DNA of 64,000 nucleotides, taken from sequence record NC_048170.1, one strand, 5' to 3'. Made by a program: the position numbers and the translations under genes. Positions 33,917 to 48,868 of the stretch are shown piece after piece. Each line of letters opens with the position of its first letter. The stretch's first letter is position 1. This stretch comes from Escherichia phage vB_EcoM_Goslar. A model generated the notes under the pieces. It saw nothing but the letters and a program-made list of their open reading frames with translations, searched no databases and was not told the DNA's origin.

Positions 33917-36900
33917 TTATTTGGCGTCGTTAAAATAAATATCAACAGCTCGTTCCGTTGCGTAGAGGAGACCAAGATTCACAGTCCCAACCACTTCCGG
34001 TGAACCGATGATACGGTTAGCGATACTGGTGCCACTGAAGATAGCATCAAGGGTGTGCCCGTCTTCGGTTTTGTTCACACCATGACCCACGGAAGAGACA
34101 ACGGATTTCGCTTGTGCTGCGAAGGTACCTTTATCACCCATCCCCGCACCAAGGTCGTAACGCATGAAAATACGGATGGCGATCTGGTTCTCGCCTAACG
34201 GATTACCGTCTATTCTTACGTTACTGTTGTTGATACGCCCCGTTGTTGCTTCGTTGAGTTTCAGTTCCTTAACGCGTTTAGCTCGTGCTTTATCCGCATC
34301 GCCGACGAGCGCTGCCATGGTTTCACTCATATCCTCAATCTGAGCGCGGTACAATACATCGATCTGTACAACTTCACCATGAACGTCAGCACGTGGGTTA
34401 TACTGACTCATACGCCGTAATGCTTCAACGGCTTCCTGACTCTCATCACTCAGATCGGTCGCAATCGGTTCTTCCAGTGTTGCAAGGATCGTTCGTGGTT
34501 CAACATGATCGCCGATTTTCACGAGACCACGAATGTTGAGATGGGCGTCAACGATGAGTGTACGACTCTTAATCGATGGTGTTACGAGACGATCGGCAAG
34601 ATTGTCGAAGATATACGAACTGTCCTCGTGCGTCTCTGGAATATCCAGAATACCGACAAGAGACAGAACACCTGCGCGCCAAACAACCTGACCTGGGTTC
34701 CACCAATCGCGTTTAAAATAAAGACGATGGAAAACCACCACATCCTGATCCTTAACGCGATCCCCGACTTTATAATCGGTAATGAGATCGTGAGGATAAT
34801 ACTTACCTGGTCCTTTCCCGATTATCGTGCCGAGTTGGAAAACCTCTTCTCCTAACTCTGGATCGTCGTATTGTATCGTAAGCGCAGTTTTGGTGACCTT
34901 CTTAACAACACCATCGCCTTGGGCAGCTGCTGCGAAGAGTTTACCAACACGATGCGCGATGACTGTCTCGCCACCCGTACGCCATGGTTGTACATCGTAA
35001 CCTTCAGCAGCAATCATGCGGTTGTGTTGGATTCCGACAAAAACCAGACGTTTTCCATCGTCACGGTCTACAGCCGGAACAGCTAACGCCGACGTACTCA
35101 TTACCGATGAGATACCATCTGTCTTTTCATCGAATGGTCGTGTTTCACCATACACCGACACGATATTAGCATTAGGTGCAAGGTAAGCAGAGATACCCAC
35201 ATCCCCACTATCTTTCGTACCCTCTGACACAATACCAACATCAGACTTGTCGTATTCACGATCGCGTGCGCGTCGAAGCGATGTCTTTGAACGACCTCCG
35301 ATACCGGTCATCGTTGCTTCTTCACCTTGCTTGATATCCAGCATTGGGTTGGTTTCATCAATGACGATAGAAGCACTGTCGTCAAGGATTTGGTTCCAAA
35401 CGCTCACCGGACTGATTGAGATCTTCTGTCGGTTGCCTTGGCTGCTGTTCTCATTCTGACGAATAGCGCCAACCAGGTCCTTATACACCAATTCAGCGAA
35501 CTTATCGTACGTTTTAAAACGTTGGTAGTTCACATCGTTCGTGTTAGGTGCCCAATCATCCAGAAGCAGTTCAACAGCACGCAGTAGCAACATGGCGAAA
35601 TCAGTAGGTTCTCCCATGTTCTGTAATAGCGTACGGCTTACCGGATCAACGAAAAGACGCTCCATGAGTTCAAGTTCGCGTAAATGGCGAACCTTAAGTC
35701 CAGCACCATCGACAACGTTAAAATAGATATCACGATTGTCAAAAGCGCCGCGAGCGTAACCGATGTAGTTACGGTACTCGTTAAACCCACCCAGCAACAA
35801 CGTCGTCATGCGATCGTCTTTACTGAAAATCAAACTTTCATCGTCAAAGCTCACCGCGAATTCATCTGCTGCTAACCCCATACGAGAACCACGAGGTACC
35901 GTACGATAGTTTGCTTTAAGATGTTCTAATAACGGGGTAAGTCCGCCCAGATAACTTAGAACAACGCCAACCGGAATACGTACACCCATGAATTCAAGAT
36001 CGGCGGCTTCGATCGGCATCTTAGCCGCATTGATACCGAAGAAATCAGGGAACGTCCCTACAGGTGTTGGTGTTTGTCCTGACTGACAGATATAGAGCTG
36101 ATTGCGTTCATCGATCGCTAGGAACTCACCCGATGTGTTACGTGCGAACGTCAGGAGTCCTTCGGCTAACTGTTCGTTGAACCGATCTTCCCCAATGAAC
36201 TCCGGCAATGTTTTTATATCGAGACGTATATCCCAATCAGCAAATTGGATTTGGGTATAGTTGCGTGCAAGCACAGCGAAGTAATACGGGACTTTGACAG
36301 CCGGATCAAAGACGTTACCACGTTTTAACGTTGTTAAGGGTGAGGACTTATCGTAATACATCGCCGTAAGTTGACGTGTTAGCCAACGACCGGCGTTATT
36401 AACGACGCGCTCTGAACGTTTAACAAACACCTTACCGTAGGCGGTACTTAATGCAACTTCGGATGATGATACCTTTCTAATAGGTTTATCAACACGTTGT
36501 TTACGCATCCGGTACTTGATGCCGTTAACAACATAAATGCCATCCTTACGAACCTTCGGCAACATCACCGGGAACGTGGTTGGGACACCGCCTACAGGGG
36601 CCAGTTTAATCGTGATGACTTGATAATCCCCCATCACGTCAACAACATCTTCGACTTTATATCCCGTAACAGGGTAACCTGCTTGCTGTACCGCAACAAC
36701 GGCAGCTGCGATGTCCTTTTGCATTACATGCTCAACGTAATGTTTATCCCACACCGCAAGCGTCGATTTACATAGGCTCTTATCGACGATAACATCCGCT
36801 TCCGGCATAACCTTTGCGGGAGCTAATTTTGCGGCTTTTGGTTTAACTTCAACATACTCGGCAAGCGTGAGTCCAGAACCGTCGGGCGCTTCGATTTCAT

Positions 36901-38263
36901 GAATAGCGTCGGCATTACGCATCGCTGCTTTATATTGGACGCCGCTTAACTGACCCGCATCCGCCAGATCGCTCGCGCGCACCAACACCGCATCCGATAA
37001 CGACTGAATATATTCACCGTGCGTTTTTGGTAACGTTGCCGCGTCAAAGACATCAACCTTTTCTTCTTCGGTATCGTCGGTAACGACTTCGAAGAGATCG
37101 TCGGTAATGTCCTGATCTTCATCGGGTTGGAAATCTGGTTGTACTTCTACCCCGGGTACTTCACGGACATCTTCGAACGCGCGTTCTACAATGGCGTTCC
37201 ACGCATCAGCGTCATCGTCTTCATCCGACCCACCGACCAACTCCGCTTCTAACTCGTCGGGGTCAAGAACAGTGGCCAGATCCTCCCCGTTAGGAAGCAT
37301 GACGTCACGATCATCGTACTCCGCATCCGGGCTGTCCGCAAGAATATCTCGCTCTTGACGAAGAACCTGTTCCTCTTCTTGTTTCTGTTCTTCTTCATTC
37401 GCACTCTGCGACCACAGACGTGTTACCGCCATCATCCAACGACGCTGGAAGGTTTCAAGTGTCGTTTTATCGAGTTCTTCCCCTTCCTTTACAAGTCCGG
37501 TACGCCATTCTTCCAGTAGACCAAGATTCAGCGTAAAGAAGTACACACCGTCTGTAAATACAACGTTAAGCTTATCCAGCGTGGCTCTGTCTAACGAAGC
37601 CATCGTGCTGTTCTCACGATCGACGCCCAGCCAGCGGAAGAAGTCAAAGAACGACAGCTCCTCCGGCGTGGCGAAATTCATGAGGTTGTTACGGGTCGGT
37701 GCCTGTTGCGTGGTACGCATCAACGAAATCTTCGGCAATGTTGACGGTATACGGAACAACAAAAAGTGTTGACGATCGCTTTGCTGTGCGATTTCGTTGG
37801 CTTTCGACCAAATTGTTTTACGCACGTTGAACCATTCATCATACCAACGGGTGAGCGTTGGACGATAGATGTACATGTGGTTAAGATGTGCGTAGTTAGC
37901 AACGATCTGAGCGTTGATGTTTTTCTCCACCGTACTTAGATCGGTAACCAAACGAAAACGACGATGCGATGCACGATAATCCAATTTCGCTCGTGGAAGT
38001 TGGAATCGTTGATCGCGTCGAGGTGCACCCTGTTTGGTTGCGAGATCATCAGCAAACGAAATCCATAGTTGAGCACTTTCTTTACTCAGCATGTATTCGT
38101 TTTCTGGAGGACCTATCAATGAAGGATCCGTTGCGGTGTAATGATAGACAGCATAACGCGGCAGCTGCAATAGCTGCACTAAACGTAATCTCGGTGACAA
38201 TAGCTCTTGGTAGCGTCTGACACCAAACTGTCGGTAGTAATCAAGGTATTTAAGTTTTGCCAT
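33917..38263 (-). CDS. multisubunit RNA polymerase beta-like subunit
   Basis: NPMLDIKQGEEATMTGIGGRSKTSLRRARD...SEGTKDSGDVGISAYLAPNANI resembles beta NPLSEITHKRR..GPGGLTRERAG..ETPEGPNIGLI; GDKGTF...GHGVNKTEDGHTLDAIFSGTSI resembles GDKMAGRHGNKGV block; RBS GGAG. Confidence 0.55.
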   Translation of the reverse strand: MAKLKYLDYYRQFGVRRYQELLSPRLRLVQLLQLPRYAVYHYTATDPSLIGPPENEYMLSKESAQLWISFADDLATKQGAPRRDQRFQLPRAKLDYRASHRRFRLVTDLSTVEKNINAQIVANYAHLNHMYIYRPTLTRWYDEWFNVRKTIWSKANEIAQQSDRQHFLLFRIPSTLPKISLMRTTQQAPTRNNLMNFATPEELSFFDFFRWLGVDRENSTMASLDRATLDKLNVVFTDGVYFFTLNLGLLEEWRTGLVKEGEELDKTTLETFQRRWMMAVTRLWSQSANEEEQKQEEEQVLRQERDILADSPDAEYDDRDVMLPNGEDLATVLDPDELEAELVGGSDEDDDADAWNAIVERAFEDVREVPGVEVQPDFQPDEDQDITDDLFEVVTDDTEEEKVDVFDAATLPKTHGEYIQSLSDAVLVRASDLADAGQLSGVQYKAAMRNADAIHEIEAPDGSGLTLAEYVEVKPKAAKLAPAKVMPEADVIVDKSLCKSTLAVWDKHYVEHVMQKDIAAAVVAVQQAGYPVTGYKVEDVVDVMGDYQVITIKLAPVGGVPTTFPVMLPKVRKDGIYVVNGIKYRMRKQRVDKPIRKVSSSEVALSTAYGKVFVKRSERVVNNAGRWLTRQLTAMYYDKSSPLTTLKRGNVFDPAVKVPYYFAVLARNYTQIQFADWDIRLDIKTLPEFIGEDRFNEQLAEGLLTFARNTSGEFLAIDERNQLYICQSGQTPTPVGTFPDFFGINAAKMPIEAADLEFMGVRIPVGVVLSYLGGLTPLLEHLKANYRTVPRGSRMGLAADEFAVSFDDESLIFSKDDRMTTLLLGGFNEYRNYIGYARGAFDNRDIYFNVVDGAGLKVRHLRELELMERLFVDPVSRTLLQNMGEPTDFAMLLLRAVELLLDDWAPNTNDVNYQRFKTYDKFAELVYKDLVGAIRQNENSSQGNRQKISISPVSVWNQILDDSASIVIDETNPMLDIKQGEEATMTGIGGRSKTSLRRARDREYDKSDVGIVSEGTKDSGDVGISAYLAPNANIVSVYGETRPFDEKTDGISSVMSTSALAVPAVDRDDGKRLVFVGIQHNRMIAAEGYDVQPWRTGGETVIAHRVGKLFAAAAQGDGVVKKVTKTALTIQYDDPELGEEVFQLGTIIGKGPGKYYPHDLITDYKVGDRVKDQDVVVFHRLYFKRDWWNPGQVVWRAGVLSLVGILDIPETHEDSSYIFDNLADRLVTPSIKSRTLIVDAHLNIRGLVKIGDHVEPRTILATLEEPIATDLSDESQEAVEALRRMSQYNPRADVHGEVVQIDVLYRAQIEDMSETMAALVGDADKARAKRVKELKLNEATTGRINNSNVRIDGNPLGENQIAIRIFMRYDLGAGMGDKGTFAAQAKSVVSSVGHGVNKTEDGHTLDAIFSGTSIANRIIGSPEVVGTVNLGLLYATERAVDIYFNDAK

Positions 38264-38266
38264 GGG

Positions 38267-38446
38267 TTAGGCTCCACGAGGTCCCGTTAAGTTGCGTAAT
38301 AGGAACGCAACCGTATCGTAACCAATATCAATGTTGAATTTATTTTTACCACTTACCCAGAAAGCTCGCTTCTTGTGCGAGTTGGTAATTTCGTCAATAG
38401 CTTCCATGGAATAAAGAACGTTAACCGAGACCGTATCACCGTCGAA
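38267..38446 (-). CDS. RNAP beta-prime-like subunit, exon 2
   Basis: frame translates FDGDTVSVNVLYSMEAIDEITN...GYDTVAFLLRNLTGPRGA*, colinear with E. coli beta-prime after DFDGD; below 60-codon ORF-track cutoff. Confidence 0.6.
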   Translation of the reverse strand, partial: FDGDTVSVNVLYSMEAIDEITNSHKKRAFWVSGKNKFNIDIGYDTVAFLLRNLTGPRGA

Positions 38447-38930
38447 CCTTGTCTTCGCCTCAGGTCGCTACGCTGAGACCGCCTGCATGGATACGTACAT
38501 CACAGGCTGCTTGCACTTTCATGCAAGAGGAGACTATATCAAACCGTCAGCTTCACTTTCTCGATCATATCGAGAATGCGGCGCTGAAGTATTCTTCAGC
38601 AGCACCTGTTACGGTAACCTACACTTCGAAGACGCTTGTCCTCTACAGGGTGGTAAATCCCTTAGTCGTTGAACCTGCGTTGTTTCACATTCTTACAACC
38701 AAGAATGCCGTATTGCTACGCAATAACCAGGCTGCTGATTGCCCATTGTCTCGCACCTTAGCACCGCTTACGCGGCTTTTCTTTCAGCCTAAGCCTCTTA
38801 CGGAGGTAGTGCATCTCAACTGTTGTTTCTGCCTTTCGGCACCTCATGGGTCGTTGAGCTTTAGGGGTTCCCAGCAATTCGTAGGTTTTTCAAGCACTCC
38901 CTTTCAGGAATACCGGACCTTATAGAAAAG
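38447..38930 (-). ncRNA. group I intron catalytic core (3' part of intron)
   Basis: minus strand: AATTGCTGGGAA (38879-38868), AATCAGCAGCC (38740-38730), GTTCAACGACTAAG (38674-38661), GATATAGTCTCC (38540-38529) in P-Q-R-S order; no ORF of 60 codons or more on the coding strand. Confidence 0.6.
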
Positions 38931-40403
38931 CTATTTATTCAAGTATCTGAAATCCCACTTATCCTTACGTCTATTATCGCACTTGATGTCAGGATGTCTA
39001 ACACGGTGTTGAATCGTAGTCGCTGGTAATTGACTCACATTCACAGCCGATTTCGCGCCAAGAACAATTGTTTTTGTGTTGTCCGGACGAGTAACTTCTA
39101 CCGCTCGATGATGTTTACGTAACACATCACGCCAATACTCACGCCGTTCCGGTTCCGCGTATTCGAGCATATAACCGTTGGTATCGACCAGACCGTAACT
39201 CTCGTTTAAACGAGAGGTGGCGGCTGGTCTACTAATACCAATCGCTTTAGCCGCGTCAACCACGGTTTTATACGGGGTCTCATTACCGTCTCTATCTACA
39301 ACCACAATAAAATCTGGACGCGAATCGAGCAGCTGCTGTCTTCGTTCAAGGGCTTGTTGATGAAGCACCTTATTAACATGTTCGAACCCGTAACCTTCTG
39401 GACCGTGCCACCCTGGATTGTTATTCGCTCGATAAAGTATCGTCGCAGATTTCACTCCCGTCTGACGTGACGCCTCGTTCGCACTATGGACAACCGTGGT
39501 AGTGCCATCAGGGTGATATATCCGTATCTGGTTCATTATACCAGAACCAACGAAATTACCATCAGCTGATTTAATGTCCGGCCAGGGTTGTGGATCATCT
39601 TTGAATTTAACCACCCAACGGTTGTTAAACAATTTGACTTTCCGAGCATGTTTACCTAATGTCGTGTCTGTAACACCGGCTACAGCAGAGGCTTGCGCGA
39701 TACTAGGATATTCCGTGACCACATCTTCTTCAGTATCCCAAAGGAGAACCGGTTTGTTATCATCACGTAGTCCGGTCTCAACCGCATGTAGAATATTTCT
39801 AAGGCGGGTTGCCCATTCTAGATTGTCTAACGCGTAATTCCACTTATCGCCATCAAGATGGTTAACGTCCATCCTATCGACATCAGCCGGATAATCTTTC
39901 CACGCTAAGAGCAGACAGCGATGAAGCGATCTTCTCTGGGATTTAAATCGGCAATCATGCTGCATACTAACGAAAACATAGCTATCGTCAACACACCAGT
40001 GAGGACACTGACGGCCAGTAATACGGTTGATGATTCTACCTTTCCGGTTGGCCAAATAACGAGTGTGTCCGGGAATGACACGATAACCTGGGTACTTAGC
40101 GATTTCGTAAGCAGGCTCGAACCGATAGGATAAATTATCAACATCCCAGTTAGATTCGTCACCATCAACAAACATCGCTTTGACGTATTTCTGTGTTTCA
40201 ATATCAACCAGGATGTTTTTGTGTGCGATACAAATCAATGCTGGGATATTGAATTCGCGACCGGCTATGATAACCGTGTCGCCATTTCTCGGTACCTCGA
40301 CGTGGGTATCGCGATACCGTAAGTTTCCATAGCCGTCTATTTCAATCCAGCTTAAAAACGGAATGGGTATAAACTCTTTTTCAGATACTCGCCATTTAAA
40401 CAT
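38931..40403 (-). CDS. HNH homing endonuclease (intron-encoded)
   Basis: HNH motif VNHLDGDKWNYALDNLEWATRLRN; C-terminal repeated DNA-binding-like modules (SIAQASAVAGVTDTTLGKHARK, TVVDAAKAIGISRPAATSRL). Confidence 0.8.
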   Translation of the reverse strand: MFKWRVSEKEFIPIPFLSWIEIDGYGNLRYRDTHVEVPRNGDTVIIAGREFNIPALICIAHKNILVDIETQKYVKAMFVDGDESNWDVDNLSYRFEPAYEIAKYPGYRVIPGHTRYLANRKGRIINRITGRQCPHWCVDDSYVFVSMQHDCRFKSQRRSLHRCLLLAWKDYPADVDRMDVNHLDGDKWNYALDNLEWATRLRNILHAVETGLRDDNKPVLLWDTEEDVVTEYPSIAQASAVAGVTDTTLGKHARKVKLFNNRWVVKFKDDPQPWPDIKSADGNFVGSGIMNQIRIYHPDGTTTVVHSANEASRQTGVKSATILYRANNNPGWHGPEGYGFEHVNKVLHQQALERRQQLLDSRPDFIVVVDRDGNETPYKTVVDAAKAIGISRPAATSRLNESYGLVDTNGYMLEYAEPERREYWRDVLRKHHRAVEVTRPDNTKTIVLGAKSAVNVSQLPATTIQHRVRHPDIKCDNRRKDKWDFRYLNK

Positions 40404-40410
40404 TTCAATA

Positions 40411-40440
40411 CCTATTAATTACCACTTTCATATTAATAGG
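40411..40440 (-). promoter_or_regulatory. AT-rich 9-bp hairpin just upstream of HNH start codon
   Basis: minus strand cctattaat-atgaaagtggta-attaatagg ending 8 nt before ATG. Confidence 0.35.
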
Positions 40441-40490
40441 TTTAAAAGTTAAATTTGCCAGAAAACTGGCATTTTGTTAGCCTTTCCTTG

Positions 40491-41957
40491 ATCACCGCCA
40501 AGTCCGGCGAGGTATGGCGCAGGGACAATAGTAGTTTCTACGAACGAGGCATTAGGTAACCAGTCGGGGTATTCCCACGCAATAAATCGCTCATCCGTTA
40601 TTGGTTCCCAGTTACTATCAAGTTCAGTTTTCGGTTTTGCTGCAACGGTCGTACGCGCGTAACAGGTTAACGGAATGACGGATTGCATACCCGATACCGG
40701 ATAACGTGTTACCATTGCAGCCAGGTTATTCCAGTATTTATATCCTGCGATATACACTAATTCGGTATACGTGATAGGGTGAACATCTGCACCAGGTTTG
40801 TTAAGCATCTCCGGAGGTAATTCACTCATACCACGGAATAACCGAAACGAATCATTGTTCACATAGACAAGACAAAGATATCGTCCATTAACCATGATAG
40901 GTTCGTTACGCACACCCGGATCGCTTAAGGTGTTCAGTAAGCGTTCTATTCCGTCCCAGGTTGTAAAGTCATCGATGGTGTCTGGATCAAGCGTGACGCG
41001 TTCACGTTCCATCGTTTCGGTATCAATAAGTTCAACTTCTGTAACATCACGGACAAATATTTCCTGCAAAATCCCCGTACGTAATGCATGTTGCGTTACA
41101 GGGAGAGCAGCTTTACTCATCTGGTATAACCCTAACTGAACCGCGGTACAGGAAGGCTGGTTAGGCGACCCTAGTACCTCCGTTGTGGGGTTAATTGCTG
41201 AAATAACGTTACGGGTTGAGTTCCAAACGCGACGTGAACCAAACTTACCTTGGAAGATCCCTTTCTTACCTTGGAACATATCCAACAACAAAGCGTAGAT
41301 ATCGTTAAATGTTCTCTGTAAGCTCCAGCGCTGGCCGTCGTAAACGGGATCAGAATAATCTTTTAATCCATCGGGGACGGTGTTAGAAATTGCAAGGAAA
41401 CGACGATACAACTCTGTAATCTCTTGCTCGCTTTCATACCCGCCTTCTTTTACTTCTATTTCACGTAAGCCTGCAGGCAATACCAGTAAGTGACGGGTCA
41501 TCGCTTTGAACATGTTCTCTTCGACAACTTTAATTCGTAGCTCTCGTTGAGCTGAGCCCGTTGAAACGAACTTGATATCCGCGACGTGTTGTGCAAAGAA
41601 CCCGTATCCTGTTTGTCCTGTTAACGCATCAGACGCAACGAAGTCGCGTTGTTCAGGATCCCAACGAGCGTACGCCTTCCCCGACATGATATCACCATAG
41701 AGGTGTTTTAGTCGAATGAGGCGGTCGTAAATGACAGGGTGCAGGATTTCAACTTTACATTCAATCACCGCAAATCGACGGTCTCGATCTTCACTACCCG
41801 CACTACCAAAGATGGTGTAAGAATAGAAACCATCATCGTGGAAATTACCGGTGCTTGGGTCACGAATGCTCATGCTCGTGATCTTGGGGAGAAAACGTAA
41901 CTGCTGTTTATCGAGGTGTAAAATGCTAATGTTAAACGGCTCTCTGACTTTAGCCAT
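40491..41957 (-). CDS. RNAP beta-prime-like subunit (N-terminal fragment), exon 1
   Basis: RBS GAGGAG before ATG at 41957; blocks LLVLPAGLREIEV, KKGIFQGKFGSRRVWNSTRNVISAINP, RYPVSGMQSVIP align with [41 protein letters not shown]; ORF-track tail past 40491 is intron read-through. Confidence 0.6.
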
Positions 41958-42202
41958 GGAGACACTCCTCTTTACCACCACCGGCTGCGGCGGTATCATC
42001 TGAACACACGAGAGACGTAATGGGTGATGGCGTCACCCATCGCTTCCTTGCTTGAGGCGAGGAAGTTATTAGGTTACGTACCTGCGTGATAAAATCAAGC
42101 AGGCGATGTGTGAAGTTACGCTTCAACATTATCAATGCCGAAGGTAAACTTCGTGCATCACGTTCCAACGTAACATGGGAACGTATCGAACTGGAGGTAT
42201 AC

Positions 42203-45200
42203 ATGGTAGATAAAACCCGTGTTGAGGGTGATGATAATTGGGATAACTGGGATGAAGACTTCTCCCTGGATCTCGATTTTAACGAACCCAAAGACGATCG
42301 TAAACCGATAACACGCTTTGCGATAGGAGCGGTTAAAGGTGCTGCTGAGGATCTTACTTCCTACGAAAGAATGAAGGAGATCGCCAGAAACGCATTGCCT
42401 AAGGGCTACAGCGACGGTATGGATCTTATCGATTCCGCCGTCGGATCCACGAAGGAACTATACAATGAAGCCGTTCGTGACGTTCTTCCTAAGGTCCAAA
42501 GCTCAAAACGGTTAGCAGCACAACTGACCAAGAAATACCGTGCGAGCATGCCCGATTTCTCGAAGAAAATTCTTGAGCAATGGGAGCGAGAAGCCAAGGA
42601 AGAAGACGAACGTAAACAAGCTGAAGAAGCCCTTCGTCAACGCATGGCGAGCGCGGGGGACGATGAGATCGCCCGCAAGGTTGCCGAGGCATTAGGCGAA
42701 TCAGCAAACCAAAGCGCGGATCAGTTTGCTGAACAGCAAGCGAAAGAAAGTATCCGTGACGATATCGCTGACAAACGGTACGCTGTAACCAACAAACAAA
42801 TGAGTGCGATGCAAGAAGGCGTCGCCAAGATGGTTGGTTTCAACAATGAATTCGCTGCACGCTACATGCGTAAAAGCCTGGAACTGAAATATCGTTCCTT
42901 AGCGATTCAACGTGCAAGTTTCGATCAGCATAAAAAGTTAGCCGAAGTCTATATCGGTCTATTACAAAACATCCAGAAGAATACGGCTTTACCTGATGCA
43001 GCTAAAGCGAAGATGTCGGAAGAATTCCGTCGTAGTGCATACCAACGTTTCTTTGGTAATGCGTTAGATGCGATGGGTTCTTTCGAGAACCGTTTCTTTG
43101 CCGATGTTAAGAAGAACCTCGCCACCAACGCATTAGGTGCTTTAAAAGGCGTCGTGTCTGGCGCAAACGATGCGTTATACGGTTTAAACGAAGCACGTGA
43201 CTCGATGTCCATGATGGACGGGATGGGGTCAGAAGGCGATATTAAGGAAATGCAAGGAAGGATGTTGGGTCAGTTCATTGGCTCAACTGTCGCGCCGTGG
43301 ATGGCTAATAAAGGCAGGATGGCGTTACGCGATTTAGCAAAACGTCACCCCAATGCTAAATTCGCAGGTGCGTTAAAAGCCGTGGATCAAGGTGGTGAGG
43401 CTGCCGCTTACACGACGCGTAATCTCGGTAAACTGCTCCAGGAAGATATTCGTAAGAACGAATTCAATCTTAGCGATCCATTTTACAAGCAATTGTTACG
43501 CGGCGCAGGGCGTTGGGCGTTCAACATGGACAGCGGACGTAACTTCCGTGTGATGAACGACACCGCTGAAACACTGGCAGAGCAAACATCTTTCGACGGT
43601 TTAACCTACCGCAGCATCAACGAGGTTATTCCGGGCTTTCTTGCACGCATTCTGAAAAGCAGTGAGGGTATCCGCACCGGAAACAGCGATCCTGACTACG
43701 AGGTCTATGACGGCATCAGCGGGCAATTCGTGGCTCAGCGCACGCGCGAACAAAGCGTCAACGACACGCTGTTTAACAAACGTTCGTTTGGTTATTACGC
43801 AAGCCGTTTCAATGAGGTTATCTCGGTCATCGATCCCGATAAACAATTATCGGAAAAAGCCAGAAAGGCGCTGGCCAAGCAGTTGGCACGAGATAGCGAC
43901 GCAAACATTGCATTCGACCCAGCTCGTTTTACGGATGAAAGCAACTTCGATCGTAGTATCGACCGTGACGCTATTAAGGAACTTTCCACATACTTTCGAG
44001 ACCGTTACGGTATTCGTGATGATGTCAACGATAAGGGCGAACGTCATCAGGTCATTGGAAACCGCGGGCAATATTACACGGAACGTAACCGAGCTGACCT
44101 TCGCTACGGAAATCTGAAATCGTTACAACCGGATATTCAGCGTAACCTTAACCTACTGAAACGTACTGGTGACGTCCAATATCTGGAACGTATCGGTATC
44201 GTAACGAGAAATAGCGACGGAAGCTACTCAGTTAATCACGATCGGTATTTCTCTGAAATCGATCGATACATCGACCGACCGGAGTACGCTGACCGCGGCG
44301 ATGTTAATACGCGATTAACCGCTCAGGAAACAAGAGCGCTGGCGTTGGGTTATCGTGACGCAAAACCATCAACTGGTGACGTCCAAAATGCGGGTCTGCC
44401 GAACATCGATCGTAAGGCTGCTGGAACAGTAACCGTTGATGAAAACATCGGCTACGATAAATGGTGGAACGACGCTGGCGTTATCACTACATCGCTTGAA
44501 GAACAGAATCGAGCATGGCAAGAACTCTATCTCGAAGCGTTATCTGAAGCATCCGAACAACGTGTCGAAATGCTTGCGTTGCTGAAAGCCATTTCTGAGA
44601 AAGACTGGTCTAATAACGTTTCGCTGGATGGTGAAGACGTACCTGAAGGTGCAGCGCCCATTTCATTTATCGATCGCGCCAAACAAAAACTCGGCGGACG
44701 CAACCTCTTTAAAGGTGGCCGTAATCTCCTCTGGAAAGGAATTAAAAATACCGCACGATTGGGTGTTAAAGGCGCACGTTGGGGTGCAGAACGTACATTA
44801 GGTAGTTTGGTAAATTCCGGCCGACGTATTATCAATTTCAACCGTTTTGTGTTCGGCGCATTATCCAAGGTCGATCAGGTTCCGTTTGACATTTACGTTA
44901 AAGGGGAATCCCAACCACGCATACTGGCTGCCAAACTTCGTCAGGGGTTATACTTCGACGAGGCGACAGGAAAAGCCGTAAAACGGATGAAGGATATCAA
45001 AGGCCCACTCGTTGATGCGGATGGAAACGTCGTAATCAGCAACGAGGATATCGAGAAAGGGCTGGTCACTCGCGCTGGTCGTGCCTTTGAGAATTCAGGA
45101 CTTAAGGCGTGGGCGCATGAAGGTCTTAATGGAATAACGACGGTATTAAGTCTGCCACGGATGTTAAAACGCGGTGCGGTTGAGATCTACAAACAGCTTG

Positions 45201-48200
45201 ACAGAACACCCGACGTTTACGTCAAGGGAGAATCAACGCCTCGTCTATTATCCATGGTGTTAGCAGCGGGTGGGTATTTCCGTCGCTCTGATGGGCAAGT
45301 CATCAAAAATCTTGAAGACATCGATGGTGATGTTGTTGATGCACAAGGTAACGTCGTACTTACGCTTGCCGACATGCAGAAAGGACTTGTCGATAAATAC
45401 GGTAAAGCGATTCGTCGCTTAAAAGAAAAGCTCATCAACTTCGGTGTGAAAGCTTTCACGTTACCGTTAACCTTACTACGCAAGACAAAGGACATCCTTA
45501 AAGCCCTTCCAGGTAAAACCGTTAACGGTCTACGACGGATGGGATTAAATTTCCAATCACCTGACGCATTACTGGTGGGAACAACGTCGAGCATGGTAGA
45601 TCGGCTCGATGCGATTTACCAGCTTCTTGACCAGCGTATGCCGGGTGGTGATAAGGATTACCGCGATTGGGATGGCGATGGTGTTCGAGAAGGATCGTTG
45701 GAAGACCTGAAACGTAAACGTGCAGCCAAGGAAAACGGTGAGGATGACGCAGGCAAAGATTCCAATAAAGGGGAAGAAAAGGAGAAGAAACGAGGATTAC
45801 TCGGAAGCCTTTTCGATATGCTCGGCGATACCGCATTAGGTAAACGCCTCATGGCGAGTCCGCTTGGAAAAATTCTAGGTGGTCTTGGGGCGGTGTTAAG
45901 CGGCGGTGCATCGTTAACCGGGTTGTTGGGCAAAGGTCTCATTAGAGGAACCGGTGCACTGGTCAAGGGAGGACTAAGTGCGGCAGGATGGTTAGGACGT
46001 GGTGCGTTAATGGCGGGCGGGGCCGCATTGAACGCCGTTGGTGGGTTATCGGGATTAGGTGCATTCCTCATCTCACCTGTTGGGCTTGCTATCGCTGGCG
46101 GCGCATTGGCTGCTTATGCTGGATGGAAGATCTATCAGCATTTCGCCGAGAAGCCTGACCCGATGCAGAAGCTCCGTCTTATCGCATACGGTGTAAAAGG
46201 TGACGATAAAGACTTCAATAAGAAGCTGCTTGCGACAGAAACATACCTCACCGACCATGTGGTTATGACCGGGGATACCATCGGATTCGATCCGAAAGCC
46301 GATTCTGAAAAGATTCTCGAAATCTGGGAATTGTCCCTGGAAGATTCCGACCGAATGAACGAATGGAAACGTTGGTATCTACATCGTTTTATTCCTGTTT
46401 TCGCTCGTGCGTACAAACTCTGGAAAGAGCATATGCCGGACGAGAAGAAATACATGGAAATGGATAAATATCCAAACGGTGAGAACAAAGTGAAATGGTC
46501 GGAAGCGTTTATCTGGCCTTCCGATAGTCCTGATGGTCCGTATTACGTCGAAGCTAACCCGTTGGGTTCTTCTGGTGCGACGCGTTATATTGCTGGTCAA
46601 GACGTCAAAACCTTGATGCTGAAACAACTCGAAGCCATCAAGAAAGAGTACCAGAATCAGATTAAGCAATACTCTCATGATGAGGCTATTGCTGATTGGT
46701 CACGGATGTCTGACACACAACGTAAATCCGTTGCGCCTAACGCATTACGCGGTCAGAAAGCGTCGTTACGTTTTAACGATAAACGTTACAACAGTGCTGG
46801 CGCTAAAGGACGACAGAAACTGGATGCAACCGCGGTTATTGAAAGCGTAGACCGCCGCGGCAGGAAATGGGTTGCCGGTGGATACATCGATGAACTCACC
46901 AGTCTCCGTGTTCGCGCGTACGGTATCAAGGTTCCGTTGTTAAGCCAGATAAAAGTGCTGATGGAACTTGAAGACGCTGTAGAACCTGGCGTTGTCGCTG
47001 AAGGTAAAGGTGTTAAATACGGTGGCGATCTTGTCGCGCTCTACAAGAAATTCGCGACGAAGTTCGGAAGAGACGTTAACAGCAAGCATGATCAGGATAT
47101 CTGGTTTGCTTGGATGAATAACCGTTTCCTGCCCGTCTTTTTAACCTATTACCAACAAGTTAGCGAAATGGGCGGTCAAGGACTTCTGTCCGACGTGGTA
47201 CAGAACCTGAAAGACAGCCAGCGTTGGGAAATCGGTGAAGCACTTGTCGCAACGCAATACCGTGATGAGAAAGGTGCATTACAGCCTGTATGGTCGTGGA
47301 ACAGTTGTGGTTTCTCCGGTACTGAAGCTAACACCACCAGCAGTTCAACAAAGAGCCAACTCGATCTGTTAAAAGAATATGCGGATAAAGAGAAGGTTCG
47401 TGAGAAGAACGCGGAAGCATCGCAAGAGGATACCGATAAATTATCGAAGATCCAAGAGCTGATGATGAAGCAGGCTGGGTACGAGAAGAAAGACGGTGTC
47501 TGGCAGAAGAAATCTCGCATTACTGGTGGGATGAGTAACTCCGAAGCGAATTACAACCCCAATGGGAATAAGGTCGGTGCAAGCAGCTTTACTGCTTCGG
47601 CTACTTCCAATGCGGGATTGGGATCAACCGGCGATCTTACTGGATTGCCTAACATGGGCTTACAGAAACCGGCAACGGGACCGGGTCCTGAAGCTGGACG
47701 TCGTGCGCTTGTTAAATCCGCTGTAAAACGCGGTATTACCGATCCAATGGAAATGGCGATGTTCCTTGCGAACATCGAACATGAATCGGGGAACTACACT
47801 CACGTACGTGAGGGGAACTATAAGACACCTGAGCGTCTTAAACAGGTCTTCCCTTACAAATTCCGTGATGTGCAGGATGCCGCACAGACGATCAGCATGG
47901 GGCCGGAAGCGGTATTCGAACGTGTGTATGGTAATCGTAAAGACCTAGGAAACACACAGAAAGGAGACGGGGCGAAGTATTTAGGACGTGGATTCATTCA
48001 GGTTACCGGTAAAGCTAACTACGCTCGTCTGTCTAAGACCTTGAATAAGGATCTTGTCAGCGATCCGACATACCTGGAAACGCCGGAAGGTGCAGCGGAA
48101 GGTAGTGTTGCATGGTGGCTCAACCGAGGTAACGTATTACGCGATCCCGCAAAACGGGGTGACGTGCGCCAAGTTCGTTATCTGGTTAATGGTGGCTATA

Positions 48201-48868
48201 ACGGATTACGTGATGTTGAACAACGTTCTGCATATTGGATTCAGGCGGCTAAGAATGGCACCCTGAAGAAAATGATGGACGAGTTATCAGGGTCAACATC
48301 AGACGATCAAGCTGAAGGACCGACCACTGCCGAACAGGTGAAGAACGAAGCAGCACAAGAGGCAAACGGAACACCAGCTGTAAGCAACGATCCGCAAGCC
48401 CCAGTATCTTCTACTACCCCTGAAGCTAAACCGTCTGCAGCTGCCGGGACGGCCCCAGCACCTGGAGAAGCATCACCAACGCCTGGAAGTTTCGAAACAG
48501 CAAAAGCCGCGGCAGGACAACCGACATCAACTCCAGCACCTAGCGATTTGCCGTCAAACCCGGGCGCAAATCGAGGGATATCGGTTCCGAATACGCCTGC
48601 ACAGGTTGCACAGTCTGCGACACAAACGTCGGCTGCAAGTGAGAACTTCTACGGTAGCGCAGGTGAAATTCTCCGACAGCAGCTGACCACGCAGCAGAAC
48701 ATCGAGAAGAACACCGGTAGAACGAATGAACTTATTTCGGAATTAATCCAAGCCGTTAAGGGTTCTTCTATCGGTAAGGGTTCTGCAGGTCCTTCTCAAC
48801 AACAGACGATGTCGCTACCTAATCGTCCGCAAGGAATCTCTCCAACACGGACAAGGTACGCACAGTAG
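42203..48868 (+). CDS. giant virion-associated protein with GH19-type lysozyme domain
   Basis: start MVDKTRVE with RBS GGAGG; FLANIEHESGNY...YLGRGFIQVTGKANY lysozyme/chitinase-like block; Gly-rich hydrophobic segment GGLGAVLSGGASLTGLLG...AIAGGALAAYAGW. Confidence 0.6.
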   Translation: MVDKTRVEGDDNWDNWDEDFSLDLDFNEPKDDRKPITRFAIGAVKGAAEDLTSYERMKEIARNALPKGYSDGMDLIDSAVGSTKELYNEAVRDVLPKVQSSKRLAAQLTKKYRASMPDFSKKILEQWEREAKEEDERKQAEEALRQRMASAGDDEIARKVAEALGESANQSADQFAEQQAKESIRDDIADKRYAVTNKQMSAMQEGVAKMVGFNNEFAARYMRKSLELKYRSLAIQRASFDQHKKLAEVYIGLLQNIQKNTALPDAAKAKMSEEFRRSAYQRFFGNALDAMGSFENRFFADVKKNLATNALGALKGVVSGANDALYGLNEARDSMSMMDGMGSEGDIKEMQGRMLGQFIGSTVAPWMANKGRMALRDLAKRHPNAKFAGALKAVDQGGEAAAYTTRNLGKLLQEDIRKNEFNLSDPFYKQLLRGAGRWAFNMDSGRNFRVMNDTAETLAEQTSFDGLTYRSINEVIPGFLARILKSSEGIRTGNSDPDYEVYDGISGQFVAQRTREQSVNDTLFNKRSFGYYASRFNEVISVIDPDKQLSEKARKALAKQLARDSDANIAFDPARFTDESNFDRSIDRDAIKELSTYFRDRYGIRDDVNDKGERHQVIGNRGQYYTERNRADLRYGNLKSLQPDIQRNLNLLKRTGDVQYLERIGIVTRNSDGSYSVNHDRYFSEIDRYIDRPEYADRGDVNTRLTAQETRALALGYRDAKPSTGDVQNAGLPNIDRKAAGTVTVDENIGYDKWWNDAGVITTSLEEQNRAWQELYLEALSEASEQRVEMLALLKAISEKDWSNNVSLDGEDVPEGAAPISFIDRAKQKLGGRNLFKGGRNLLWKGIKNTARLGVKGARWGAERTLGSLVNSGRRIINFNRFVFGALSKVDQVPFDIYVKGESQPRILAAKLRQGLYFDEATGKAVKRMKDIKGPLVDADGNVVISNEDIEKGLVTRAGRAFENSGLKAWAHEGLNGITTVLSLPRMLKRGAVEIYKQLDRTPDVYVKGESTPRLLSMVLAAGGYFRRSDGQVIKNLEDIDGDVVDAQGNVVLTLADMQKGLVDKYGKAIRRLKEKLINFGVKAFTLPLTLLRKTKDILKALPGKTVNGLRRMGLNFQSPDALLVGTTSSMVDRLDAIYQLLDQRMPGGDKDYRDWDGDGVREGSLEDLKRKRAAKENGEDDAGKDSNKGEEKEKKRGLLGSLFDMLGDTALGKRLMASPLGKILGGLGAVLSGGASLTGLLGKGLIRGTGALVKGGLSAAGWLGRGALMAGGAALNAVGGLSGLGAFLISPVGLAIAGGALAAYAGWKIYQHFAEKPDPMQKLRLIAYGVKGDDKDFNKKLLATETYLTDHVVMTGDTIGFDPKADSEKILEIWELSLEDSDRMNEWKRWYLHRFIPVFARAYKLWKEHMPDEKKYMEMDKYPNGENKVKWSEAFIWPSDSPDGPYYVEANPLGSSGATRYIAGQDVKTLMLKQLEAIKKEYQNQIKQYSHDEAIADWSRMSDTQRKSVAPNALRGQKASLRFNDKRYNSAGAKGRQKLDATAVIESVDRRGRKWVAGGYIDELTSLRVRAYGIKVPLLSQIKVLMELEDAVEPGVVAEGKGVKYGGDLVALYKKFATKFGRDVNSKHDQDIWFAWMNNRFLPVFLTYYQQVSEMGGQGLLSDVVQNLKDSQRWEIGEALVATQYRDEKGALQPVWSWNSCGFSGTEANTTSSSTKSQLDLLKEYADKEKVREKNAEASQEDTDKLSKIQELMMKQAGYEKKDGVWQKKSRITGGMSNSEANYNPNGNKVGASSFTASATSNAGLGSTGDLTGLPNMGLQKPATGPGPEAGRRALVKSAVKRGITDPMEMAMFLANIEHESGNYTHVREGNYKTPERLKQVFPYKFRDVQDAAQTISMGPEAVFERVYGNRKDLGNTQKGDGAKYLGRGFIQVTGKANYARLSKTLNKDLVSDPTYLETPEGAAEGSVAWWLNRGNVLRDPAKRGDVRQVRYLVNGGYNGLRDVEQRSAYWIQAAKNGTLKKMMDELSGSTSDDQAEGPTTAEQVKNEAAQEANGTPAVSNDPQAPVSSTTPEAKPSAAAGTAPAPGEASPTPGSFETAKAAAGQPTSTPAPSDLPSNPGANRGISVPNTPAQVAQSATQTSAASENFYGSAGEILRQQLTTQQNIEKNTGRTNELISELIQAVKGSSIGKGSAGPSQQQTMSLPNRPQGISPTRTRYAQ

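Follow-up and report, generated by a model that had tools for sequence, protein, structure and literature searches.

Apparent truncation of the virion RNA polymerase beta' subunit in Escherichia phage vB_EcoM_Goslar is very probably due to translation into a mobile group I intron

In the 64,000-nucleotide stretch of the genome of Escherichia phage vB_EcoM_Goslar analysed here (NC_048170.1; hereafter the window), the gene for the virion RNA polymerase (RNAP) beta' N-terminal subunit, the orthologue of gp180 of phage phiKZ, lies on the minus strand and appears to be truncated within its active site. An open reading frame (ORF) of 516 amino acids (aa) at 40449..41999 ends in ...LAGLGGD followed by QGKANKMPVFWQI (listed as ...TTIVPAPYLAGLGGDQGKANKMPVFWQI among the ORFs of the window) and holds only one of the three aspartates of the Mg-binding D-x-D-G-D triad, encoded by GAT at 40493..40491. 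The span 40449..40520 consists of the last 10 exon codons (40520..40491) followed by 13 read-through codons and a stop codon (40490..40449). Further along the same strand lie a 490-aa ORF for a putative HNH homing endonuclease and a short coding stretch that begins with FDGD. The tail of the beta' ORF is very probably the start of a 2044-nucleotide (nt) mobile group I intron carrying the HNH endonuclease gene, and removal of the intron restores the active site.

The 516-aa ORF is counted from an in-frame ATG at 41999, upstream of the likely start of the beta' gene at ATG 41957 (MAKVREPF...), which is preceded by AGGAG within AAAGAGGAGTGTCTCCATG. Exon 1 was assigned to 40491..41957 on the minus strand, based on the ORF, the splice arithmetic, the homologues and PHROG 2986, and its final codon, GAT, specifies the Asp that comes first in the catalytic triad (D489 in the 548-aa product). 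The read-through tail, at 40449..40490 on the minus strand, comprises the first 42 nt of the intron in the frame of exon 1, i.e. 13 codons (intron nt 1-39) and a TAA stop codon at 40451..40449. An exact look-up of the 502-aa read-through ORF that starts at M15 retrieved QBO64022.1 / YP_009820914.1 (Goslar_00231), which is publicly named 'hypothetical protein' or 'RNA polymerase beta subunit' and includes the false tail. A first-pass annotation of this DNA had described the ORF end, its coordinates and the single Asp, as borne out by the ORF listing, and had expected automated annotation to report a truncated subunit, which is what the 502-aa public entry represents.

Exon 2, FDGDTVSVNVLYSMEAIDEITNSHKKRAFWVSGKNKFNIDIGYDTVAFLLRNLTGPRGA plus a stop codon, is located at 38267..38446 on the minus strand. 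Its translation begins with FDGDTVSV (FDGDTVSVNVLYSMEAIDEITNSHKK), and after FDGDTV the frame continues through SVNVLYSMEAIDEITNSHKK to the stop codon at 38269..38267. No ATG, GTG or TTG was found between the in-frame stop at 38470..38468 and FDGD, the first Met (38407) being placed after the motif, and gene callers applied to metagenome contigs report only a 46-aa ORF from this Met (M38407). Joining 40491 to 38446 keeps the frame, and the product has 562 aa when counted from the first ATG and 548 aa when counted from ATG 41957. With the junction marked by a slash, the spliced protein reads GLGGD/FDGDTVSVNVLYSMEAIDEITNSHK, i.e. ...GLGGD/FDGD..., within the peptide AGLGGDFDGDTVSV (unspliced counterpart GGDQGKANKMPVFWQI), and the ligated exon DNA of Goslar is GGCGGTGAT/TTCGACGGT. 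The complete D-x-D-G-D triad is present only once the exons are joined (GGD/FDGD). As the insertion separates the codon of the first Asp from that of the Phe in D-F-D-G-D, the intron is situated inside the Mg-binding loop. The spliced sequence ...YLAGLGGDFDGDTVSV (LGGDFDGD) aligns with the beta' subunits of phage AR9 (7s00; LLSALSGDYDGDVLNI, SGDYDGD) and of plastids (8qma; CKGFNADFDGDQMAVHV, NADFDGD), and none of D489, D491, G492 and D493 varies among 39 aligned homologues. A downstream FDGD exon and the restoration of the triad by joining the exons had both been put forward in the first-pass annotation; the former can be read directly from the minus strand (TTC GAC GGT GAT ACG GTC at 38446..38429) and the latter is in agreement with the alignment to the NADFDGD loop and the invariance of its aspartates.

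The spliced product belongs to PHROG 2986, 'RNA polymerase beta subunit' (E 3e-179, residues 17-557), and matches proteins in 308 phage records, in 284 of which at least 80 % of the protein is covered in one place. Its homologues are found in about 300 phiKZ-type jumbo phages at approximately 40 % identity and include the 'vRNAP beta' subunit 1' of Erwinia phage RAY. A sequence search of the PDB retrieved AR9 beta' (E 4e-4), and a Pfam search with the spliced protein gave no match, which is attributable to the strong divergence of the family. An AF2 model of the spliced protein has a mean pLDDT of 81.8, and the top PDB matches obtained with Foldseek are all RNAP beta' chains, the best being AR9 beta' (7s01_d, E 1.4e-14), followed by cyanobacterial, plastid and bacterial beta' (E 1e-12 to 1e-10); the TM-scores are only about 0.35, as the protein is multi-domain. 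By orthology to phiKZ gp180 ('structural head protein') and to the RAY subunit, the Goslar beta' N subunit is presumably packaged in the virion.

The intron itself extends over 38447..40490 on the minus strand, as defined by the Rfam family RF00028 (Intron_gpI) and by collinear intron-less alleles. RF00028 is the sole Rfam family found in the 64 kb, with an identical result for the whole window; the match at 38938..38510 (minus strand) scores 67.7 bits against a gathering threshold of 50 (E 2.3e-16) and covers model positions 1-253 of 253. A match to the FtrA small RNA on the plus strand (28.9 versus 134 bits) was dismissed as noise. Group I chemistry requires a U before the 5' splice site and a terminal G in the intron. 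In Goslar the 5' splice site follows U40491 (U at -1) and the last intron base is the terminal (omega) G38447, directly before TTCGAC. The boundary is unambiguous because the first intron base is C as against the T of exon 2, the last is G as against the T of exon 1, and no other junction restores D-F.

The catalytic core (38510..38938, minus strand) was delineated from the model alignment and from a consensus fold of 7 family members. The predicted helices are P2 (38911..38896), P3 (38887..38880 with 38623..38616), P4 and P5 with a large P5 extension, P6, P7 (approximately 38667..38663 with 38536..38532), P7.1 (38662..38647), P7.2 (38643..38628), P8 and P9 (38527..38510). Extra P7.1/P7.2 hairpins are typical of the subgroup IA group I introns of phages, and the two hairpins predicted between P7 and P3' suggest that the Goslar intron is a member of this subgroup. 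The 3' peripheral region (38447..38509, minus strand) is predicted to form P9.1 (38507..38481) and P9.2 (38479..38457), followed by GAAGACAAGG to G38447. In the RNAalifold prediction, CAAG (38451..38448) pairs with CUUG (38894..38891) just 5' of P3; this could be a P9.0/P10-like pairing or chance. One G-C to G-U change was observed in this pair among the relatives. In the endonuclease-bearing intron an identical stretch of five bases, CAAGG, occurs at the start (40486..40490) and at the end (38447..38451) of the minus-strand sequence.

Three types of allele were observed among the close relatives: intron-less (L001-L006 and the IMG/VR contig L009; n=7), ORF-less, i.e. with an intron lacking the endonuclease gene (L010-L014 and L016), and endonuclease-bearing (the window and L015). 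The seven intron-less alleles align collinearly with the window, their DNA being about 90-96 % identical, with a gap of 2044 nt at exactly 40490..38447, and read GGTGGGGAC/TTTGACGGT (TTTGAC-type) at the insertion point. Identity in the flanks is about 96 %. Their continuous product is also present in the protein data; identity to the spliced product is 100 % for P0001 (548 aa, from a cluster of 235 members) and 99 % for P0003, which stems from an assembly of Salmonella Enteritidis. The ORF-less introns measure 510 nt (L010 and L011), 543 nt (L012), 488 nt (L013), 515 nt (L014) and 467 nt (L016); they share the boundary and a near-identical core, and what sets them apart are entire peripheral hairpins in the extensions of P5 and P8. 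A U at -1 and a C at +3 are found in 7/7 intron-containing alleles, and a C at -1 and a T at +3 in 7/7 intron-less alleles; these differences are synonymous, and position -4 is G in all the intron-less alleles. Group I introns need a U.G wobble at the 5' splice site, which the U at -1 of the intron-containing alleles fits.

L011 and L012 have a divergent exon patch of about 20 nt beside the intron (YLQGLGGD), which resembles the more distant phage protein P0130 and is consistent with co-conversion during homing. L011-L015 are five Goslar-like contigs of 183-241 kb from one metagenome (JGI sample 3300045988), in which the form of the beta' intron (four ORF-less lengths and one endonuclease-bearing) is variously combined with the presence or absence of an intron in the beta gene; the impression is one of a population circulating together, with introns turning over actively. 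A megablast search of the region against the phage collection (without Goslar) and the complete E. coli genomes gave no match. The wider family was surveyed with the cluster representatives among proteins P0005-P0120, homologues of the spliced product: 84/120 are full length, and 31/120 end 0-21 residues past the first catalytic Asp. The shared position argues for introns as the cause of these 31 truncations, some of which could be contig ends. Two of the 120 (P0079 and P0113) end right after DFDGD, and a second insertion site 12 nt downstream is therefore suggested.

The residues that follow GGD vary among near-identical phages. In members of one 90 % protein cluster, that of Goslar_00231, at least four other tails occur: KSLKNKDFF..., LQVSSKTCYFYHF (P0127), SI (P0131 and P0134) and RPF (P0005). 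The tail QGKANKMPVFWQI is that of the endonuclease-bearing intron of Goslar, and the tail KSLKNKDFFQGKLSGIPERECLKNLRIAGNP results from reading through an ORF-less intron into the intron core. The existence of the tails LQVSSKTCYFYHF, SI and RPF points to Goslar-like phages in which this site is occupied by introns with different 5' ends, perhaps with other endonuclease cassettes behind them. Across the alleles the tail ranges from 0 to about 31 residues, and this free variation of sequence and length, together with the phiKZ stop codon placed immediately after the Asp, indicates that the tail is not under selection. The 13-residue tail of Goslar thus appears to be a conceptual translation of unspliced RNA only. 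The first-pass annotation had likewise regarded it as an artefact, namely intron sequence translated in frame, a view with which the lack of conservation agrees and to which the seven intron-less alleles and the group I core now add exact bounds. The group I class, the HNH endonuclease and the precedent at the same site of phiKZ are additions to that annotation.

The ORF within the intron (38931..40403, minus strand; 490 aa; Goslar_00230) was assigned as an HNH homing endonuclease gene based on Pfam, PHROG, I-HmuI and phiKZ gp179. It matches Pfam HNH_3 (33.6 bits, cut-off 24.8), belongs to PHROG 59, 'HNH endonuclease' (E 2e-26), and is 31 % identical to phiKZ gp179 (E 2e-29). The match to I-HmuI (PDB 1u3e) is weak (E 0.01) and involves the HNH motif and a short C-terminal stretch in the helix-turn-helix region. 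The database cluster of the endonuclease has about 50 members with an intact ORF of 490-493 aa. A hairpin is predicted directly 5' of the start codon (40404..40446, minus strand; -9.7 kcal/mol, z -2.55), and its 3' arm contains the AGG of the likely ribosome-binding site; an equivalent hairpin precedes phiKZ gp179 (L017:2285-2313, z -3.37), the 3' arms holding AGG in Goslar and AGGA in phiKZ. Translational control by a hairpin has been described for I-TevI, and the Goslar hairpin may similarly sequester the ribosome-binding site and control the translation of the endonuclease.

The location of the endonuclease gene within the fold is predicted from the pairing of the two strands of the P1 extension. 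The 5' strand of the P1 extension, GGAAAGGCUA, lies at 40478..40487 (intron +4..+13, minus strand), as judged from the fold and from shuffled sequences, and the 3' strand, UAGCUUUUCU, with the guide GGUC, at 38916..38933 on the same strand (strand 38933..38924, guide 38919..38916); the 3' strand starts with the stop codon of the endonuclease. The resulting helix of 10 bp was obtained in 23-45 of 5000 shuffles (0.5-0.9 %). The predicted guide pairs are G38919-C+1, G38918.U-1 (wobble), U38917-A-2 and C38916-G-3, and the whole endonuclease cassette with the 5' leader would form the terminal loop of the extended P1. A guide GUCC is also found after the endonuclease gene in phiKZ and before P2 in the ORF-less relatives, in which UUGUCC is paired with exon GGAU or UGAU and the intron AA after it, an 11-bp helix following directly. 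A naive scan of the whole intron for guides returned several matches of 6-8 bp in the endonuclease ORF and in P6/P8, about the number expected by chance, and the best of these, GUUACCGU at 38618, lacks complementarity to the exon of L011 and L012. Preference was given to the GGUC at 38919..38916, to which a comparison with the ORF-less relatives and phiKZ had pointed. The 'P2' pairing of the Rfam model at 38934..38913 is mismatched and was reread as the 3' strand of P1.

A conventional course of splicing can be proposed for this arrangement. The primary transcript would fold into the group I core, with P1 formed by exon GAU and intron C with GGUC (38919..38916) and stabilised by the 10-bp extension that the endonuclease cassette closes as a loop. 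An external guanosine would attack after U40491, and the freed 3'-OH of exon 1 would in turn attack after G38447. From the ligated mRNA a product of 548 aa would be translated that has all three Mg-binding aspartates (...GLGGDFDGDTVS...). The I-HmuI-like HNH enzyme presumably acts on intron-less alleles, which it would nick or cut close to the insertion site, with homing by recombination repair, and such homing would explain the coexistence of endonuclease-bearing, ORF-less and intron-less alleles in near-identical phages.

Several observations weigh against this account. No compensatory changes were seen in any of the 127 pairs (0/127; RNAalifold, 7 family members), the 7 sequences being too alike for covariation, and the structure consequently rests on the Rfam model and thermodynamic folds. 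The least secure part of the intron model is the exon-guide pairing, which in Goslar has only 4 bp and is mismatched at -4, a position that is paired in phiKZ and two relatives. In the endonuclease ORF, NUMOD1 scores 21.2 bits, under its cut-off of 22.8. Finally, we infer the splicing and the junction peptide of Goslar beta', as well as the activity and the target of the endonuclease, from sequence comparisons.

The short exon-guide pairing and the family alignment devoid of covariation support would also suit a decayed, non-splicing relic, with the beta' gene a pseudogene or dependent on a helper. Such decay is highly improbable, as the core scores well above the Rfam threshold across the whole model and the U at -1, the terminal G and the P7 strands are intact. 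In addition, the exon sequence GGCGGTGAT also occurs with an ORF-less intron in three more contigs, and the endonuclease-bearing form persists in about 50 database members with the ORF unbroken. Goslar is moreover propagated as a laboratory phage (PMC9891218) and, by analogy with phiKZ, the virion polymerase starts the infection (PMC9891218; PMC11620839). The public record, taken at face value, describes another situation, in which the 516/502-aa ORF is the real product, an inactive or regulatory beta' fragment with one Asp and a genuine tail GKANKMPVFWQI, and the FDGD stretch represents either a small subunit of its own or a relic; the RNAP subunits of jumbo phages are indeed naturally split into several polypeptides (PMC7598289). 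A separate FDGD subunit, however, would have no start codon before its motif, the only callable ORF being that of 46 aa after it, and a genuine tail would hardly be expected to be unconserved in near-identical phages while their intron-less alleles encode a continuous protein. Given also the full group I core between the two parts and the invariance of the three aspartates in the family, this interpretation is extremely improbable.

Inteins often interrupt active-site motifs, as the insert does here, and removal of the insert at the level of the protein or the ribosome, by an intein or by translational bypassing, was therefore also considered. A length of 2044 nt is far beyond the known translational bypass gaps. 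The frame of exon 1 meets a stop codon after 13 codons of the insert, and more stops come thereafter; the insert matches an RNA family rather than an intein, and the endonuclease ORF opens at a separate start codon, before which lies the AGG embedded in the hairpin. Owing to the in-frame stops and the RNA-family match, both of these readings were dropped, and next to no probability is attached to them. Splicing could also be accompanied by some translation of the unspliced RNA, giving a one-Asp protein with a role of its own, e.g. as a dominant-negative or assembly form; the sequence does not forbid this, and the stop lies just 13 codons into the intron. The free variation of the tail, absent altogether in phiKZ, would be unexpected for a functional product, and the separate compartments for transcription and translation in nucleus-forming phages (PMC12908238) should favour splicing first, so that very little probability is assigned to a second product. 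Read-through into a spliced group I intron is hence preferred.

As a positional orthologue of the phiKZ gp180/gp179 intron, the Goslar intron is a case of an already known kind. In phiKZ, the orthologous beta' N gene gp180 is interrupted at the identical point, G-x-D/FDGD, and the HNH ORF lies between the 5' splice site and the guide: gp180 ends in ...APLGAD followed by a stop codon, FDGDTVSF follows 1443 nt later after a terminal G, and an RF00028 core of 92.2 bits lies in between. The HNH gene gp179 occupies the 5' part of the intron, with the guide GUCC at the 3' end of the ORF and a hairpin before its start, and the order gp181/gp180/gp179/gp178 is common to both phages. The two differ in host and genus, the exon proteins being only about 38 % identical, in the length of the intron (1443 versus 2044 nt) and in the endonuclease (357 versus 490 aa, the latter having an additional C-terminal region); in phiKZ a stop codon follows the Asp at once and there is no tail, and phiKZ pairs at -4 in P1, which Goslar does not. 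Introns of phiKZ involving gp179/gp180 are cited as known in a passage of PMC11512511 (referring to Mesyanzhinov 2002 and Ceyssens 2014). No mention of an intron in Goslar was found in the literature searched, subscription journals being mostly outside the search.

phiKZ is nicked by the HNH intron endonuclease gp210 of PhiPA3, associated with the beta gene gp211/209, from which PhiPA3 gains an advantage in competition (Birkholz et al. 2024, PMC11620839). As in Goslar, a group I intron with an HNH enzyme lies in a virion RNAP gene of a nucleus-forming phage, beside conserved catalytic Asp codons, and the nicking of an intron-less competitor is a model for the biological role. The PhiPA3 intron differs in being located in the neighbouring beta gene, after ...DD, the beta' N gene of PhiPA3 being uninterrupted (one-piece match). 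The beta gene of Goslar is uninterrupted at the PhiPA3 site (35056..35057, minus strand, codon 1069/1070). In L002, L011, L012 and L015 the beta gene is split into 1069 + 366 aa by an ORF-less group I intron after ...AVPAADRDD (in L002 at L002:10856-11222, RF00028 54 bits), which is the 'two conserved Asp' site of PhiPA3 gp210.

I-HmuI, from the DNA-polymerase intron of phage SPO1 (1u3e), is likewise an HNH endonuclease of a phage group I intron with a C-terminal helix-turn-helix region; it is shorter (174 aa versus 490 aa in Goslar), resides in another host gene and, as noted above, is only weakly similar. The group I td intron of phage T4 likewise interrupts the gene of an essential enzyme, and its I-TevI is a GIY-YIG enzyme encoded in the P6 loop. 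The T4 and Goslar introns share the P7.1/P7.2 hairpins, which are predicted in Goslar, and a hairpin over the ribosome-binding site of the endonuclease, suggesting delayed translation, and differ in that Goslar has an HNH enzyme in the predicted P1 loop. In Vibrio phage vB_pir03 (MT811961), an intron is also found at D/FDGD (GAU/...G/UUCGACGGGGAC; RF00028 54.7 bits) with a 52-nt core stretch 85 % identical to that of Goslar; this unrelated jumbo phage has a different, shorter beta'-like gene, and its intron has small fragmentary ORFs only. Proteus phage 7 has a group I intron (RF00028 51.9 bits) near the D/FDGD boundary, probably one codon upstream of it (exon 2 starts with DFDGD). In both phages (vB_pir03, MT811961 78895-86946; Proteus phage 7, MT679221 17056-24124) a truncated beta'-like ORF is annotated, followed by small or HNH-like ORFs and then a short 'hypothetical' exon.

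The mechanism is a textbook one and the phiKZ intron at the same site is already known; the value of the present analysis is thus mainly corrective and modestly biological. The public record of Goslar, a model phage in wide use, gives the catalytic subunit as a protein of 502 aa with a false 13-residue tail and no active site, and of the last 59 residues of beta' there is either nothing or an orphan ORF of 46 aa. Any structural, proteomic or phylogenetic work based on the misannotated QBO64022.1 entry will be in error. The artefact is frequent in public protein sets, affecting about a quarter of the related entries, and since 31/120 clusters stop at the first catalytic Asp, studies of core genes and polymerases in nucleus-forming phages should splice the sequences first. 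The coexisting endonuclease-bearing, ORF-less and empty alleles in phages of E. coli and Salmonella offer a test bed for homing, endonuclease loss and competition. More speculatively, and with rather less than even probability, the D/FDGD boundary may be a family-wide battleground for gp179-type HNH introns, with the endonuclease as a weapon and the -1/+3 variants as possible resistance alleles. If the endonuclease were active and imported into the phage nucleus, interference with co-infecting intron-less Goslar-like phages would be expected, as with PhiPA3 gp210 and phiKZ; the -1/+3 variants might then be resistance alleles rather than reflecting splicing requirements alone, and Goslar would allow viral competition mediated by introns, and the homing cycle as a whole, to be studied conveniently in E. 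coli.

Among the neighbouring genes, that for the virion RNAP beta subunit (33917..38263, minus strand; 1448 aa; PHROG 3148), the orthologue of phiKZ gp178, is uninterrupted in the window, and an exact look-up of its product retrieved one short contig only. On the other side, an ORF of 2260 aa (42086..48868, plus strand) is the divergent neighbour of the beta' gene and occupies the position of phiKZ gp181, annotated as a tail-associated endolysin; the gene order gp181/gp180/gp179/gp178 is thus kept between phiKZ and Goslar. The intron leader contains a further hairpin, GCCAGUUUUCUGGC, at 40457..40470, which gave rise to the weak FtrA match; no plus-strand gene ends there, and on that strand the sequence resembles an intrinsic terminator (GCCAGAAAACTGGCATTTTGT).

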